This document shows positions 5,708 to 18,102 of a stretch of 38,895 bases of DNA, one piece after another. This DNA is from a virus. The DNA lies in the UHGV virus genome UHGV-2195811. One strand, written 5' to 3'. A program made the position numbers and the translations under genes. Every line of letters begins with the position of its first letter. Position 1 is the first letter of the stretch. The notes beneath the pieces are model-generated. The model was not told the DNA's origin. It saw only the letters and a program-made list of their open reading frames with translations, and made no database searches.

Positions 5708-5887
5708 TTAATAATTCCTCATTTCTAAAAAATATTTATATAAAAACCACCTAGCCAAATTGGTCAGGTGGTTCTTTTCTAATTTATGAAACCACTTTTC
5801 CAACGACTCTAAATTCGTGTTTATGTGTTAGTTTAAACAATAGGTTTGTTGTCTGAATATGGAAGATATTTTTATTATTAAATCAAA

Positions 5888-13344: not shown

Positions 13345-13643
13345 TGGATGAATTAGTTAAATTAGTGGAAGAATGGGCGAAAGAAAAGCGTTTAGATAAA
13401 GCGGAACCCGAAAAGCAAATGTTAAAAGTGATTGAGGAAGTCGGAGAAGTTGGCGCTGCATTGGCAAGAAATAATGAAAATGATTTAAGAGATGGTATAG
13501 GTGATGTGGTTGTGACGTTAATTATTCTCGCTATGCAAAATAACATGGACTTATACGAATGCTTAAATCAAGCATATAGCGAAATCAAAAATCGCCAAGG
13601 GGAAATGGTAAACGGAGTATTCGTCAAAGAAGCCGATTTGTAA
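13341..13643 (+). CDS. MazG-like nucleotide pyrophosphohydrolase
   Basis: EEVGEVGAA...DGIGDVVVTLIILA core of the all-alpha NTP-PPase fold. ATGA coupling to the upstream gene. Confidence 0.75.
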   Translation: MMDELVKLVEEWAKEKRLDKAEPEKQMLKVIEEVGEVGAALARNNENDLRDGIGDVVVTLIILAMQNNMDLYECLNQAYSEIKNRQGEMVNGVFVKEADL

Positions 13644-13660
13644 GGTTCGAGGTGGAAGAG

Positions 13661-14086
13661 ATGCGAATTATTCTACCGATTGAGCCCAAGCCACAAAGTC
13701 GCCCGAGATTTGCAAGGCGTGGAAATTATGTTAAAACTTACGAAGATCGAGCGATGAAAGAATACAAAAATCAAGTAAAGAATTATTTTCGTAAATCAAG
13801 AGCAAAGTTGATTGAAAAAGGGCCAATTTCCGCACATGTGACGTTTTACATCCATCCGCCTAAATCTGCCTTAAGTAATAAACAGAAACGCTTAGAAGTG
13901 GAATTAGAGCGAAAATATTGCGATAAGAAACCTGACTTGGACAACTATTTCAAAGCAGTCACTGATGCTGCCGAAGGTATTTTATATAAAAACGATGGTC
14001 AAATTGCTGTGATGGTTTGCCAAAAGTTGTACAGTATGCGACCACGAACAGAACTAGAAATTACAAGTTTGGAGGAACAAGTGTAG
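13661..14086 (+). CDS. rusA: RusA-family Holliday junction resolvase
   Basis: RIILPIEPKPQSRPRF...KKPDLDNYFKAVTDAAEGILYKNDGQI matches RusA motifs. SD GAGGTGGA before ATG 13661 (track start 13652 is GTG). Confidence 0.75.
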   Translation: MRIILPIEPKPQSRPRFARRGNYVKTYEDRAMKEYKNQVKNYFRKSRAKLIEKGPISAHVTFYIHPPKSALSNKQKRLEVELERKYCDKKPDLDNYFKAVTDAAEGILYKNDGQIAVMVCQKLYSMRPRTELEITSLEEQV

Positions 14087-14246
14087 TGGGTAAAACGGGT
14101 AAACAGATCAAAGAGAATTATTCGGTTAGAAAGCGAGTAAAGAAGATGATTAAATTTAAAGAATTTAATATTCAATTATTCGACGTTCACATTTATATAA
14201 AAAGGCTAAGTAGTTTTAAAACCAACAAAAATAGTATAAAAAAACT

Positions 14247-14268
14247 AACTAGTTTCCGCTAGCTAGTT
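14247..14268. repeat. hairpin 1 with conserved loop TTTCCG (AACTAG-TTTCCGCTAG-CTAGTT)
   Basis: Inverted repeat read directly. On the minus strand, the hairpin is followed by TTAGTTTTTTTATA. Confidence 0.5.
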
Positions 14269-14373
14269 ATAGATACATTTTCATCTCAGATAGAGACAAT
14301 TAATAATACATTACTATGAAATTTAAGGCAACAAAAAAAGCCAGCTGACCACTAGCTGACTTATGTGGTAGAA

Positions 14374-14395
14374 ACAACTGTTTTCCGCCAGTTGT
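14374..14395. repeat. hairpin 2 with conserved loop (ACAACTG-TTTTCCGC-CAGTTGT)
   Basis: 7-bp stem. On the minus strand it is followed by a second hairpin (CAGCTAGTGGTCAGCTGG) and T7. Confidence 0.5.
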
Positions 14396-14776
14396 TCTTT
14401 AGGTGTGAGTTAGCACTTTCCCCAAATAAAGTGCTATTAAATAGCCGATTAAAAATCGACAATAAATCTCTTGTAGAGACGTGTACTACTATTAACTGTT
14501 TACCAGAAGTTAATGTAGAAAAGGAGGAAATTTATTTCATAAATAAAATCCCCAAGAAAGTTAAAGTGATTATACCATTGAAAAATAGATTTGAAAATAC
14601 TTTCTATGCCAAAAATATTTATTAGATGGAAAATATCAAATGAATAAAGATGATGTGAAAGATGACGAATGGAAGATTGTAAAATATTGTAGAATTATTA
14701 TTGTTTTCTTTATAGTCAACCAATAATTTGTTGACTACAAACATGTATGAGTGATGAATATTTTGATAAATAAATA

Positions 14777-14800
14777 GCCAGTCGGTTTCCGCCGACTGGC
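14777..14800. repeat. hairpin 3 with conserved loop (GCCAGTCGG-TTTCCG-CCGACTGGC)
   Basis: 9-bp perfect stem. Preceded on the plus strand by GATAAATAAATA. Confidence 0.55.
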
Positions 14801-14915
14801 TGAGAAGTGAATAGCTATTGGAATAGTATTCTTAGTATAATTTATATCATATAGAGTCGCTGATGAGCAAAGAATAAGCATTTCTTATATATGTTTGGAT
14901 AAATAAAAAAAGCTA

Positions 14916-14931
14916 CTTAGTTTCCGCTAAG
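14916..14931. repeat. hairpin 4 with conserved loop (CTTAG-TTTCCG-CTAAG)
   Basis: 5-bp stem. Preceded by GATAAATAAAAAAAGC. On the minus strand it is followed by T7. Confidence 0.5.
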
Positions 14932-14992
14932 CAACTCTTAAATGATGATATGTTTATTATAAATTATTATACCATAAAAGGAGCGATTTCAC

Positions 14993-15409
14993 TTGATTCT
15001 ATTGTTAAAAGAAGTAGATTTTCGACAAACAAAAGCGAATGCTAGAAATGTGTTGAAGAGTTTTAGACGTTTAGAGCGAATAGCTGGTCGTTCTTTGATA
15101 GATTTAAAATCACCAATTATTACAGAGATGCCTAAAAGCCAAAGACACGGAAACAAAACAGAAGATGCACTGGTACAATTAGCTGATGCAGAAGCAGAAA
15201 GAGATGCAATTTTATCTGCACTTATGGCTTTGAGTTTGACTAGTAGACAAATTCTGCACTACAGTTTTTGTGTGCAGGATCATTACTCTAATTACAAGAT
15301 TGCTAGAGAAGTTGGATATTCTGAAAGAAGTATTCAACGTATGAAATCAGAAGCTTTAATTGAATTTGCTGAAGCGTATCGAAATGGAAAAATAATCGCC
15401 TATAGATAA
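14993..15409 (+). CDS. ArpU-family phage late-gene transcriptional activator
   Basis: TTG start with SD AAAGGAG. LERIAGRSLIDLKSP...LTSRQILHYSFCVQDHYSNYKIAREVGYSERSIQRMKSEALIEFA is the sigma-70 region-4-like C-terminus typical of ArpU/RinA-type regulators. Normally sits just upstream of terS. Confidence 0.75.
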   Translation: MILLLKEVDFRQTKANARNVLKSFRRLERIAGRSLIDLKSPIITEMPKSQRHGNKTEDALVQLADAEAERDAILSALMALSLTSRQILHYSFCVQDHYSNYKIAREVGYSERSIQRMKSEALIEFAEAYRNGKIIAYR

Positions 15410-15800
15410 AATTTTTGGCGGTTTTTTTGCGGAAAGTTGGCGGTTTTTATCAATATTTAGATGTTACTATGGTAGTGTCGAAAGATAAGGAAACGAGGTA
15501 AGGCATGCATTACCTATCTTAGCTCCGTTTCGCTTATCTTTTGAGGCTACCTACAAAAAAATAAAGAATAAGGATGTGGAAAGTCCAGTTCTTTTGGTCT
15601 CGTTTAGTCGTAGGTAGCCAAATATTGCAATAAACTTGGCATTAAGCTTACACGTAGACGTACGCTGAAAGCACTTGTCAAGATAGCGGTATGTAGTTTG
15701 CAAATGATCACTCACAAATCAGACGTTCTCAAACTAAAAGAAATGGGGTGTAATTCCTCTCTCTTTTTCTACAGATCTTTAATGGTACTTGATTGCTTGT

Positions 15801-15826
15801 GTAGGTTCTACTCCTGTCATGTAAAT
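15801..15826 (+). repeat. left direct repeat, tRNA 3'-end-like (T-arm + acceptor strand): GTAGGTTCTACTCCTGTCATGTAAAT
   Basis: 22/26 identical to 17714..17739. Resembles ACAGGTTCGAGTCCTGTATGGTCC of the tRNA at 2935. Confidence 0.45.
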
Positions 15827-15980
15827 CACAGCGATCATTGCTATAGGTAGCTTAATAATCATTCGCCGGTAAATACCTAGTTTACAGCTTGTGGACGGGG
15901 TGTAAAGAAAATCAAGCCATAGTCAAATCTTCATCGGCTGTGGCGTTTATTATTTCATAAACGGAAATAGAATGAAATCT

Positions 15981-16009
15981 TTCAAGATTTACTTAAGGTA
16001 TGATATAAT
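15981..16009 (+). promoter_or_regulatory. extended -10 promoter (TTCAAG-N17-TGaTATAAT) for the cassette gene A
   Basis: TGATATAAT read directly, 32 nt upstream of ATG 16042. Confidence 0.45.
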
Positions 16010-16041
16010 TGCATAAAATCATTTAGAAGGCTGTGTTTTAC

Positions 16042-16851
16042 ATGAAAAAAACTTCTTTAGGCAAATTGATATTGAATATAATTGTCATGATAGCTTTCGT
16101 CGTTTCTCTGTGTACACTAGTTCCAAGCTTTTTTGATAGGGAGCAGAAGGAAAACATCTTTAAATTAACTACTACTTTGATTAGCTTGCTAAGCGGCTTT
16201 ATCCTTTATATTTATAATAATTCAAATACCATGTTTTTTTGGGTTAATAAATTTAGGACGTATTTTTCCTTTAAAACCGTTCGTTGGGAAATGAGTTACA
16301 GAACTCCTGGGCTTTCAATTGAGAATACTAATAAGTTAAAAGAAGAGTTATACCGAATATTAAAAAGTAAAAGTATTCAAATTTTGAAGGATAACAAAAA
16401 AGAAGAGTCTAGAGTTATTAAATTTAAGAATGACAGAGGAATAGAAGCAGAGTTTGATTTGAGATGGAATGAATATGTAGATGACAGATTTTCAATGACT
16501 ATTATATTTAAATCACAAACTTCACATAGAGATGTACGTAAACAATGGTCTTTTTACAGAAATATAATAGAAGAAACTCTTAAGGTGATTTCGGAAGAAT
16601 CGAATTACGATAAAAAACCGTATGAGGAAAAATCCTACTATACGGTATCTTTAAATATGGAAAAAAATCCTTTTTACCTACTAACAATTAAAACTTACGA
16701 TAAACCTAAAGATATAAAATTCGATCTATCTTTTAAAATAGATGGAGTCAATTTCAAGACTACTAACAAAAAAATTGTACTTACAACAAAAGATATAACA
16801 AAAGTTGATACAGTTTTAAAGGATTATGTTATGTTAGGGAAAGTCAGCTGA
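16042..16851 (+). CDS. cassette gene A: membrane protein, 2 N-terminal TM helices + ~200-aa soluble domain, no recognisable family
   Basis: ATG 16042 (track start 16033 is GTG) with AGAAGG upstream. TM1 LILNIIVMIAFVVSLCTLVPSFF, TM2 LTTTLISLLSGFILYIY. Lys/Asn-rich C-terminal domain. AT-rich codon usage. Confidence 0.6.
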   Translation: MKKTSLGKLILNIIVMIAFVVSLCTLVPSFFDREQKENIFKLTTTLISLLSGFILYIYNNSNTMFFWVNKFRTYFSFKTVRWEMSYRTPGLSIENTNKLKEELYRILKSKSIQILKDNKKEESRVIKFKNDRGIEAEFDLRWNEYVDDRFSMTIIFKSQTSHRDVRKQWSFYRNIIEETLKVISEESNYDKKPYEEKSYYTVSLNMEKNPFYLLTIKTYDKPKDIKFDLSFKIDGVNFKTTNKKIVLTTKDITKVDTVLKDYVMLGKVS

Positions 16852-17515
16852 TTATTTTGATAATAGCTCGTGCTGCGTTCAAAAAAGGATTCTCATTATC
16901 AATATCATTTAGAGAACTATACATTAATAGTGCCCCAGCCTTAGTAAATCCAATAGTTCGTTCTTTCTGTAAAATATCCATTTTACCTATTAGGAAAGTA
17001 GCAGTGTCATCAGTCAATGCTTCCCCAGCTTCTTGATTTGCCTCTACATTATCGCCAGTGAAGCGTTTTTTCTGAACACCTTCTTCTTCCGTGGTAAAGG
17101 CAATCCCTCTTGTTGAATTTAACTTAGTTTGGATTGTTTTGAAATCAAAAATAAAATTGCTAAGTTTAACTTTAGAGGGCTCTGTCTCTTCTAGTGTTTT
17201 GAAGAAGTTACGAGATATCGCTGATGGTGCTGTGGAATATAAGACTTTGTCTGTGGTGTCATAAAAAACTTTAAAAACTTCTGAACGCTTATACTCATTA
17301 ATAGCTTGTAATTCAGCGTCATCGTTAAGTACAAAGATACTTTCGTTTATAGTTTCCATAAATGTAGCATTGAATACTTTAAATATTCTTGATTCTACAG
17401 TCAAAGTTTTTGGGCTGTCAGGAGCGATAGTACCTAGTACGTTGTTGTCATCTGAAAGTGATATTGGCTGACTAATATCAAATTTTTGAACTCTTTTCAA
17501 TGTTAATGATTGCAT
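16844..17515 (-). CDS. cassette gene B: soluble 223-aa protein, no recognisable family
   Basis: Strong SD ATTAGGAGGA 7 nt before ATG. Minus-strand promoter TTTACT-N17-TATAAT. Its stop overlaps the gene A stop by 8 nt (convergent). Confidence 0.6.
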   Translation of the reverse strand: MQSLTLKRVQKFDISQPISLSDDNNVLGTIAPDSPKTLTVESRIFKVFNATFMETINESIFVLNDDAELQAINEYKRSEVFKVFYDTTDKVLYSTAPSAISRNFFKTLEETEPSKVKLSNFIFDFKTIQTKLNSTRGIAFTTEEEGVQKKRFTGDNVEANQEAGEALTDDTATFLIGKMDILQKERTIGFTKAGALLMYSSLNDIDNENPFLNAARAIIKIIS

Positions 17516-17667: not shown

Positions 17668-17739
17668 TAATATCGTTGTATAGCTCAATTGATGAGAGTT
17701 TAATTAAGTATATGCAGGTTCGACTCCTGTCATGTCAAT
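17668..17739 (+). pseudogene. tRNA-like remnant (D-arm + T-arm + 3' acceptor strand, no anticodon arm); contains the right direct repeat 17714..17739
   Basis: TAGCTCAATTGATGAGAG (D-arm-like) ... GCAGGTTCGACTCCTGTCATGTCA. No complementary 5' acceptor strand, so not a functional tRNA. Confidence 0.4.
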
Positions 17740-18102
17740 AAGCAACTTTTGCTGCTTAAATAAAAATCGTCAATAAATGTTTCTTACTTTAATGATCGGT
17801 TCACCTCCTTTCAGAATTAGCCAGCCTGCGGAAACAGGATAAAGTGGCTAGTAACCTAGTATTGTTAAATAAGTGTTAGATTGGCTAGGCAGTCTAATAT
17901 AAATCTTTAGACTACTCAATAAAAATGAGTGGTCTTTTTTTGTACATAAAAAAGCCACTAGACTATGGGATCTAGTGGCTAGGTAGCATTCGTGCACAAT
18001 TTTTGTTGATTACTATTTACAAAAAGGAGTTGCTACCCATAAATAGTATAGCAAGAAGTGATTTATTGAATCAAGTACATAAAACAACTAGGAGAGAAAA
18101 AT

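Follow-up and report, generated by a model that had tools for sequence, protein, structure and literature searches.

We analyzed the 38,895-nucleotide (nt) virus genome UHGV-2195811 (hereafter the window, meaning this whole stretch of DNA). It is a phiFL1-like prophage, from a temperate phage that infects Enterococcus faecalis and is of phiFL1 type (Phifelvirus). The 906 bp between rusA and arpU, the gene for the late activator ArpU, contain four hairpins (H1 to H4) with different stems and a shared loop, and these are RNA stem-loops of the minus strand with terminator geometry. We consider it probable that they belong to a promoter-hairpin array of minus-strand small RNAs, related to the E. 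faecalis small RNA (sRNA) Ref1C, which lies at the boundary between early and late genes and would temper read-through into arpU.

Minus-strand stem-loops with terminator geometry

An earlier note on this DNA had reported four hairpins with one constant loop in the gap, and all four were found at the places it gave. Read on the plus strand, H1 has the core CTAG-TTTCCG-CTAG (14249-14262) and H4 the core CTTAG-TTTCCG-CTAAG (14916-14931), while H2 (14373-14396) reads AACAACTG-TTTTCCGC-CAGTTGTT and H3 (14776-14801) reads AGCCAGTCGG-TTTCCG-CCGACTGGCT. On the minus strand, H1 extends to 10 pairs with one G·U (AACUAGCUAG-CGGAAA-CUAGUUAGUU, 14243-14268; tail UUUUUAUACU at 14242-14233) and H4 to 13 pairs with three G·U (AAGAGUUGCUUAG-CGGAAA-CUAAGUAGCUUUU, 14908-14939; tail UUUAUUUAUC at 14907-14898; folding z = -3.4). 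H2 reads AACAACUG-GCGGAAAA-CAGUUGUU on this strand, and H3 reads AGCCAGUCGG-CGGAAA-CCGACUGGCU with the tail AUUUAUUUAU at 14775-14766 (folding z = -6.3). The copies of GATAAATAAA previously noticed ahead of H3 and H4 are indeed present (14766-14775 and 14898-14907) and are the U-rich tails seen from the other strand.

Over the entire window the hexamer TTTCCG/CGGAAA shows no enrichment (22 matches vs 16.5 expected). Within the gap, all four plus-strand copies of TTTCCG are hairpin loops closed by perfect stems of 4-10 pairs, and three hexaloop hairpins with one common loop arose in none of 3000 dinucleotide shuffles of the gap. With unlike stems and a spacing of 129, 404 and 135 bp, the hairpins are not identical repeats at regular intervals, in line with the previous view that this is not an array like those of clustered regularly interspaced short palindromic repeats (CRISPR). 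Two sites proposed as further members do not belong: the hairpin at 17825-17838 has four pairs, no T-tract and a score of 9.2 bits (E 9.3) with the family model, and GCGGAAAG at about 15430 is not within a hairpin.

A terminator scan of positions 13500-16200 returned six sites on the minus strand, with 1.0 expected, and none on the plus strand. H1, H3, H4 and a further hairpin at 14362-14338 were positive on the minus strand only. The claim that a T-tract follows each hairpin on the minus strand thus holds for H1, H3 and H4 but not for H2, which failed the scan; 10 nt beyond H2 lies the strong terminator at 14362-14338. As in intrinsic (Rho-independent) terminators generally, a G+C-rich stem of 8-13 pairs carries a short loop and is followed by a U-rich tail, and a promoter upstream on the same strand was predicted in silico for H4, H3 and the body of the predicted unit U2 described below. 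Unlike the intrinsic terminators of the same host, whose loops are diverse, these hairpins have one loop fixed across many stems.

Stem covariation was measured in 12 distinct family members from the window, other phages and the host chromosome, aligned on the loop (alignment A2). Of 120 stem cells, 96.7% were paired, a value inflated at the inner pairs because members had been selected for forming a hairpin, and 8 of 10 pairs showed double compensatory changes. The covariation score was 0.936 vs 0.409 in shuffles, none of 500 reaching it, and pairing fell to 9-49% when the partner columns were slid. The closing G and CGGAAA were invariant, and apart from G·A cells where the 8-nt form of the loop closes, no cell was unpaired. 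In the minus-strand reading there were 10 G·U or U·G cells and no A·C cells. Because neither a palindrome acting as DNA nor an RNA of the plus strand would have its wobbles on one side only, we read the hairpins as minus-strand RNA. Across the 12 sequences 7 loop positions are invariant, although 9 of 10 stem positions have diverged; this is the reverse of neutral decay and counts against the shared loop being a mere relic of duplication. The proposal that the structure is selected as RNA, its stems covarying around a loop of specific sequence, was correct and can now be put in numbers, and that of minus-strand intrinsic terminators fits both the T-tracts and the G·U pairs, which occur on the minus strand only.

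Predicted minus-strand transcription units

The extended -10 motif TGNTATAAN (TGnTATAAT/A) occurs 14 times in the window over both strands. Three copies lie on the minus strand of the gap (14974, 14849 and 14577), where 0.18 were expected and 2 of 1000 shuffles reached three, and each is 35-61 nt upstream of a hairpin. We therefore describe the gap as filled by three to five predicted minus-strand units, here set out as four, U1 to U4, each with a putative promoter, a short RNA body, a G+C-rich stem-loop and a U-rich tail. The units fold as expected, with z from -3.4 to -6.3.

Next to arpU, the predicted extended -10 TGGTATAAT (14966-14974, minus strand) lies 4 nt from the arpU Shine-Dalgarno sequence and would fire away from arpU. 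The short RNA predicted from it, U4, would run from about 14959 to 14898 on the minus strand, giving about 60 nt with H4 as its predicted terminator. Homologues of H4 in loci L085 and L080/L081 combine three different stems with one loop and one leader, CAUAUCAUCAUU. U3 follows a second predicted extended -10, TGATATAAA (14841-14849, minus strand), and would extend on that strand from about 14835 to 14766 or beyond, within a Ref1C-like span of 14740-14837. It comprises a 5' hairpin, the motif AUUCACUUCU, H3 and a second hairpin that has decayed. In this Ref1C-like RNA, H3 would act either as a weaker terminator or as an internal hairpin. Position 1 of the Ref1C model, which is the mapped Ref1C 5' end, aligns at 14837, beside the predicted U3 promoter. 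A palindrome at 14709-14741 with 16-nt arms (TAGTCAAC...GTTGACTA, TTGACT in both) appears, by comparison with L085, to be the decayed AGUGGUC-type terminator of U3, its loop and U-tract having been lost.

The best promoter-like site of the region (TTTTCA, 17 nt, TG-n-TATAAT; 10 of 12 matches plus the TG; 14569-14597, minus strand) is conserved in phiFL1B/C and precedes U2. Folding, alignment with phiFL1B/C, the lack of codon periodicity and a match to Rfam RF02845 point to an RNA of about 230 nt (about 14562 to 14331, minus strand) that would form a string of hairpins ending in H2 and the strong terminator. It may be one RNA, or two that are split at a weak terminator at 14460-14444. The 3' 107 nt of U2 are Ref1C-like, and H2 is an internal hairpin just ahead of the AGUGGUC-loop terminator, which on the minus strand at 14338-14362 reads AAGUCAGCU-AGUGGUC-AGCUGGCUU followed by U7 and is of the same family as the Ref1C terminator.

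The 5' 49 nt of U2 (14516-14564, minus strand) differ from phiFL1B/C by one substitution and the next ~150 nt by 46. These 49 nt contain an anti-Shine-Dalgarno-like CCUCCUUUUC, partly sequestered by GGGGA; specific pairing with the arpU ribosome-binding site was considered and rejected, the motif being only a generic 8-nt complement of Shine-Dalgarno sequences. A degenerate hairpin at 14487-14519 (minus strand) is a copy of GAUAACUG-GCGGAAAA-CAGUUAUC of phiFL1B/C in which the loop motif has been lost in the window. H2 sits on a 38-nt insertion relative to phiFL1B/C, and because the window has lost the ancestral U2 loop yet carries H2 on this insertion, there is a hint of pressure to keep one such loop.

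U1 is preceded by a weaker promoter-like site (TTGCCT, 17 nt, TATTAT; 14303-14331, minus strand) and would span about 14296 to 14234 on the minus strand, again about 60 nt, with H1 as its predicted terminator. The D-type unit of other phages, which is homologous to U1, has TGGTATAAA in place of the weak site. In 7-8 loci H1 occurs as the variant AACUACCUAG...CUAGGUAGUU, with both sides of the wobble pair altered.

The AGUGGUC-loop terminator belongs to a second fixed-loop hairpin family, A[G/U]UGGUC, with covarying stems (GCU/ACC/GCC) and a conserved U·G wobble; its members are at 14338-14362 of the window, L003 2186-2212, L040 3775-3808 and L085 2556-2590. Two other identities for the region were tried and rejected. 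The small minus-strand open reading frames (ORFs) lack ribosome-binding sites and are not conserved, as would be needed for a type I toxin-antitoxin system, and likeness between copies is limited to the hairpin and tail, which does not suit a repeat of the EFAR or miniature inverted-repeat transposable element type.

The description of the gap as non-coding holds for most of its length. Substitutions relative to phiFL1C are spread 15/16/16 over the codon positions, with no codon periodicity, and the annotated coding sequences conflict: SEsuP-1 has two 'hypothetical proteins' on the plus strand, and phiFL1B/C have one on the minus strand that starts within a hairpin. The possible exception is an ORF at 14146-14262, which may be the remnant of a gp31-like gene.

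Relationship to Ref1C and conservation next to arpU

Ref1C ('Enterococcus sRNA 1C') was described by Fouquier d'Herouel et al. 2011 (PMC3074167), who placed its 5' end by 5'tagRACE and its 3' end at a predicted terminator and saw it on northern blots; it was present in all 25 genomes examined and is a core-genome sRNA without known function. At gathering thresholds, Rfam returned only a tRNA in the window. When we scanned at permissive thresholds, Ref1C (RF02845, curated gathering threshold 90 bits) gave two full-length matches on the minus strand, both below that threshold: 14436-14330 with 40.6 bits (E 2e-4) and 14837-14740 with 39.1 bits (E 4e-4). The scores are graded: the bona fide locus reaches 149.8 bits, phage 1_EfsPF36, where the counterpart of U3 is more complete, 55 bits, and the window about 40 bits.

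The bona fide Ref1C (L084 4001-4130) is on a chromosomal contig of E. faecalis, 138 kb long, where a HAD hydrolase gene and an ABC-2 transporter pair are its neighbours. This contig, OR846590.1 (L212-L214), is labelled 'Enterococcus phage Efs 1-1-1' (UNVERIFIED_ORG), and the ~4 kb examined (L084 2000-6200) are of chromosomal type. Just upstream of Ref1C is an unannotated twin unit (L084 3868-3950) with TGGTATAAA, GCUUUAUUCACUUCUUUA and GAUCAGCUG-GCGGAAAC-CAGCUGAUC followed by U7. Past the other end, 43 nt from the Ref1C 3' end, lies a convergent BsrC-like RNA (RF01410, 65.6 bits; L084 4173-4260).

The Ref1C consensus contains a G-GCGGAAAA-C hairpin with the tail UUAUUU and a terminator GUCAGCC-AGUGGUC-GGCUGAC. 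H2 and H3 align to this central hairpin (GCGGAAAA loop, AUUUAUYU tail), and H1 and H4 share its loop and tail. A terminator matching GUCAGCN-AGUGGUC-NGCUGAC is present at 14362-14338 and decayed in U3. Of the Ref1C 5' hairpin with its UUUAUUCACUUC region, only U3 has the corresponding AUUCACUUCU; the copy starting at 14436 has a different 5' hairpin, and U1 and U4 have none. The phage units and Ref1C thus have in common the GCGGAAAA loop, the AGUGGUC-loop terminator, the AUUUAUYU tail, AUUCACUUCU (in U3) and an equally spaced extended -10, all on the strand where U-tracts follow the hairpins. They differ in that Ref1C is a single chromosomal core gene with one twin, whereas the phages have a tandem array of rearranged, shortened or fused units. 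These comparisons show the predicted phage units to be diverged paralogues of Ref1C and its upstream twin.

Among 103 terminator-like hairpins in the host contig no loop occurred more than three times, and the loops CGGAAA, GCGGAAAA and AGUGGUC were found at the Ref1C locus only. Within the window these loops were confined to the gap, and a scan over its full length gave no other convincing CGGAAA-loop terminator. With a hairpin covariance model (R1), only H1-H4 scored 39-47 bits in the window, the next best site reaching 19.8 bits, and in the host contig only two hairpins of the Ref1C locus were found; since R1 had been trained on these top matches, the scan is informative in that no other site scores. 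The next best site is a palindrome at 5741-5777 that scores on both strands (19.8 and 16.6 bits) and is probably an operator in the repressor/cro region, unrelated to the hairpin family. What marks the Ref1C family is the constant G-CGGAAA(A)-C loop, kept by selection while the stems drift through compensatory changes. As a negative control, a scan of viral contigs for the leader and loop (ATCATCATT...GCGGAAAC) gave almost only chance matches without hairpins, plus the known family phages, and pattern scans of genome contigs with Ref1C-derived patterns gave no match. Published RNA maps, which touch prophages in passing, and Grad-seq and antisense-noncoding-RNA studies, which do not deal with prophages, made no mention of Ref1C.

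We gathered 80 loci by ArpU, and the 1 kb ahead of arpU in them came to 56 distinct regions. This DNA is a strong mosaic in which only the last 30 bp (from 14963) are common to all loci; it is here that TGGTATAAT is found on the minus strand, at a distance of 4 nt from the ribosome-binding site of arpU. Minus-strand terminator-like hairpins, one to five in each, were found in 56 of the 56 distinct regions and plus-strand ones in a single region. Their loops belonged to a small set, CGGAAA (66), GCAA (32), AGTGGTC (30) and ATTGGTC (24). In phages whose ArpU is only 35% identical, the same predicted promoter lies 19 nt from the start codon, and beyond it come an H4-like hairpin, a Ref1C-like unit in more complete form and a D-type unit. 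This comparison shows a fixed position of the putative units between the early genes and arpU.

In the window, the gap is preceded by erf, an HNH nuclease gene, a DnaB_2 replication protein gene, mazG and rusA (end 14086), and among these proteins (Erf, HNH, DnaB_2, MazG, RusA) there was no recognisable RNA-binding protein. arpU starts at 14993 on the plus strand with a TTG codon and has a GGAG Shine-Dalgarno sequence at 14980-14983. A Pfam search of ArpU gave no match at E 0.01, and its identity is based on annotated homologues and on 89% nucleotide identity to the phiFL2A arpU region. Positions 13600-15500 share 96.6% identity with phage SEsuP-1, and for the arpU part there are matches in phiFL1A-C, phiFL2 and phiFL3.

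The 3' side of arpU has features of its own. Straight after the arpU stop, TTGGCGGTTTTT occurs twice (15415-15448), flanking GCGGAAAG; the pair is kept in 65 loci and forms no hairpin. It is followed by a 19-nt inverted repeat (15471-15551). A 27-nt direct repeat, 89% identical between its copies (15800-15826 and 17713-17739), resembles the 3' half of a tRNA (T-arm and acceptor) and flanks a 1.9-kb segment with two convergent ORFs (16033-16851, plus strand; 16844-17515, minus strand) that have no Pfam match. This segment resembles a cassette that has entered a phage tRNA gene; at the same site the tRNA is intact in SEsuP-1 and phiFL1B/C. PADLOC returned nothing useful for the two ORFs. In related phages the DNA just 3' of arpU carries ROOL RNA, rli28, RatA (a type I antitoxin RNA) and tRNAs, the RNA genes lying at L022 4803-5381, L030 5159-5338, and L080 4320-4499 and 4543-4629. 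Both flanks of arpU are hot spots for RNA genes.

Proposed function and alternative explanations

ArpU of phiFL2A is an experimentally shown activator of the late terS promoter, and its site consists of three 7-nt direct repeats in double-stranded DNA upstream of terS (PMC3753634). In staphylococcal phages, expression of rinA and ltrC depends on the early promoter of cI-cro (PMC3753634). By analogy, arpU is probably reached by read-through from the early operon, which fits the lack of plus-strand terminators in the gap. We propose that U1-U4 would be transcribed as small minus-strand RNAs. If arpU is reached by read-through, then the convergent promoters and the perfectly complementary small RNAs would damp or delay ArpU, by antisense pairing or by transcriptional interference. 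The terminators would at the same time keep antisense transcription out of the replication and early genes, and the fixed loop could be a contact point for a protein or for a loop-loop (kissing) partner. U4 has a fixed promoter but an RNA sequence that varies from one phage type to another, which favours action in cis, by interference or antisense, for this unit. For the remaining units a role that depends on sequence is favoured, given their conserved loops and, in U2, the nearly invariant 5' 49 nt.

Phage late or lytic functions are known to be under antisense control, as by lambda paQ RNA against Q and by P22 sar and P1 c4 against ant. The predicted units would resemble these RNAs in being small transcripts from the strand opposite a gene through which the phage is committed to its late or lytic functions. 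They differ in lying upstream of arpU rather than inside it and in forming a tandem series, and their effect on arpU is a proposal.

Several observations weigh against this model. Its promoters and termination are predictions, the U1 promoter is weak, and H2 has neither a promoter of its own nor a U-tract. The regulatory effect on arpU, including read-through in phiFL phages, is purely what we infer. The Ref1C-like copies of the window score about 40 bits against the Rfam threshold of 90. The loop has variants, with AAAAAA in L030 and L035, GCGAAAAA in L075 and the decayed copy at 14487-14519, and the roughly 15% of related phages that have no CGGAAA hairpin carry GCAA-loop or other terminators instead. 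The way in which A2 members were selected also counts here.

The hairpins might do no more than insulate, stopping stray antisense transcription ahead of the early genes, with functionless small RNAs and a loop left over from terminator duplication. This explanation draws on the terminator geometry itself, on a minus-strand gene downstream (16844-17515) which, like incidental promoters, might be a source of antisense transcription, on the other loops (GCAA) that many related phages have at the same places, and on the U4 leader, which differs between phage types, so that its sequence may not matter. We nevertheless regard it as unlikely, since it leaves unexplained why stems diverge around an invariant loop, why promoters are enriched just upstream of the hairpins, why an expressed host sRNA keeps the same loop, and how a loop-bearing hairpin came to be regained through a 38-nt insertion where the old copy had decayed. 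The suggestion of insulators was correct about terminator geometry and missed the predicted promoters upstream of most hairpins and the relation to Ref1C.

Recognition of plus-strand early-transcript elements by a protein, as boxB/nut-like antitermination sites or as processing or stability sites, seems very improbable. An early transcript very probably crosses the gap and would then contain UUUCCG-loop hairpins, and H1 and the D-type hairpin come directly after plus-strand stop codons; in that transcript, however, the extended stems would have C·A mismatches (10 cells vs 0), the loop would be pyrimidine-rich, and there is neither a boxA nor a downstream plus-strand terminator to override. Matches to boxA (YGCTCTTTA, at most one mismatch) numbered 17 in the window vs 25 expected, with one chance-level match in the gap. 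Lambda-type boxB likewise is a short hairpin with a purine-rich loop containing GAAA, but its loop is GNRA-like and 5 nt long, compared with 6-8 nt here, where the hairpin is a terminator on the antisense strand. The comparison with boxB thus fails on strand, loop length, boxA and the lack of a plus-strand terminator in 55 of 56 arrangements.

Elements acting at the DNA level, such as sites for ArpU or another protein, cruciforms, single-stranded initiation or packaging signals, or recombination hotspots at module junctions, are just as hard to credit. They would suit a highly mosaic region in which some breaks in homology fall beside hairpins (at 14408, and in a 38-nt hairpin-only match to L040) and an indel of 38 nt carries one of the hairpins. 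Both the wobble bias and the T-tracts are one-sided and point instead to RNA, the loop is not palindromic, and the same hairpins occur in a chromosomal sRNA gene. Single-stranded DNA signals, which the earlier note had listed, are disfavoured because a DNA-level palindrome would not show one-sided wobble bias. ArpU binding sites, also listed, would be expected to resemble the three 7-nt direct repeats known upstream of terS (PMC3753634); the hairpins are inverted repeats with unrelated stems and lie upstream of arpU.

Beyond tempering of arpU by a small-RNA array, a more tentative idea, somewhat less likely than insulation, is that the GCGGAAA(A)C loop is a recognition element common to Ref1C and the phage array that links host physiology to the late-expression decision. 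A host RNA-binding factor might read the loop, with the phage copies as mimics or sponges, or Ref1C might 'kiss' complementary UUUUCCGC or GUUUCCGC loops in the early transcript leading into arpU. A sponge of the CsrA type, with GGA in the loop, was dropped: the few phage proteins scanned contained no CsrA domain, and CsrA is not known to occur in Enterococcus.

In kind, the hairpins are nothing unusual: putative terminators of small RNAs, with a catalogued sRNA as a relative. In the literature searched we found no description of a tandem, rearranged Ref1C-like phage array beside a late activator gene that shares a selected loop with a host sRNA. In phages of the phiFL type, a stretch that has been left empty or annotated with inconsistent 'hypothetical proteins' becomes a conserved array of putative small antisense RNA genes, adjoining the master late activator ArpU at the early/late boundary. 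The orphan sRNA Ref1C gains its first relatives, whose two fixed loops point to the nucleotides likely to be important. If the proposed regulation is real, it would offer a handle on the timing of late genes, and hence on the transfer of phages and phage-inducible chromosomal islands (PICI), in a clinically important host.

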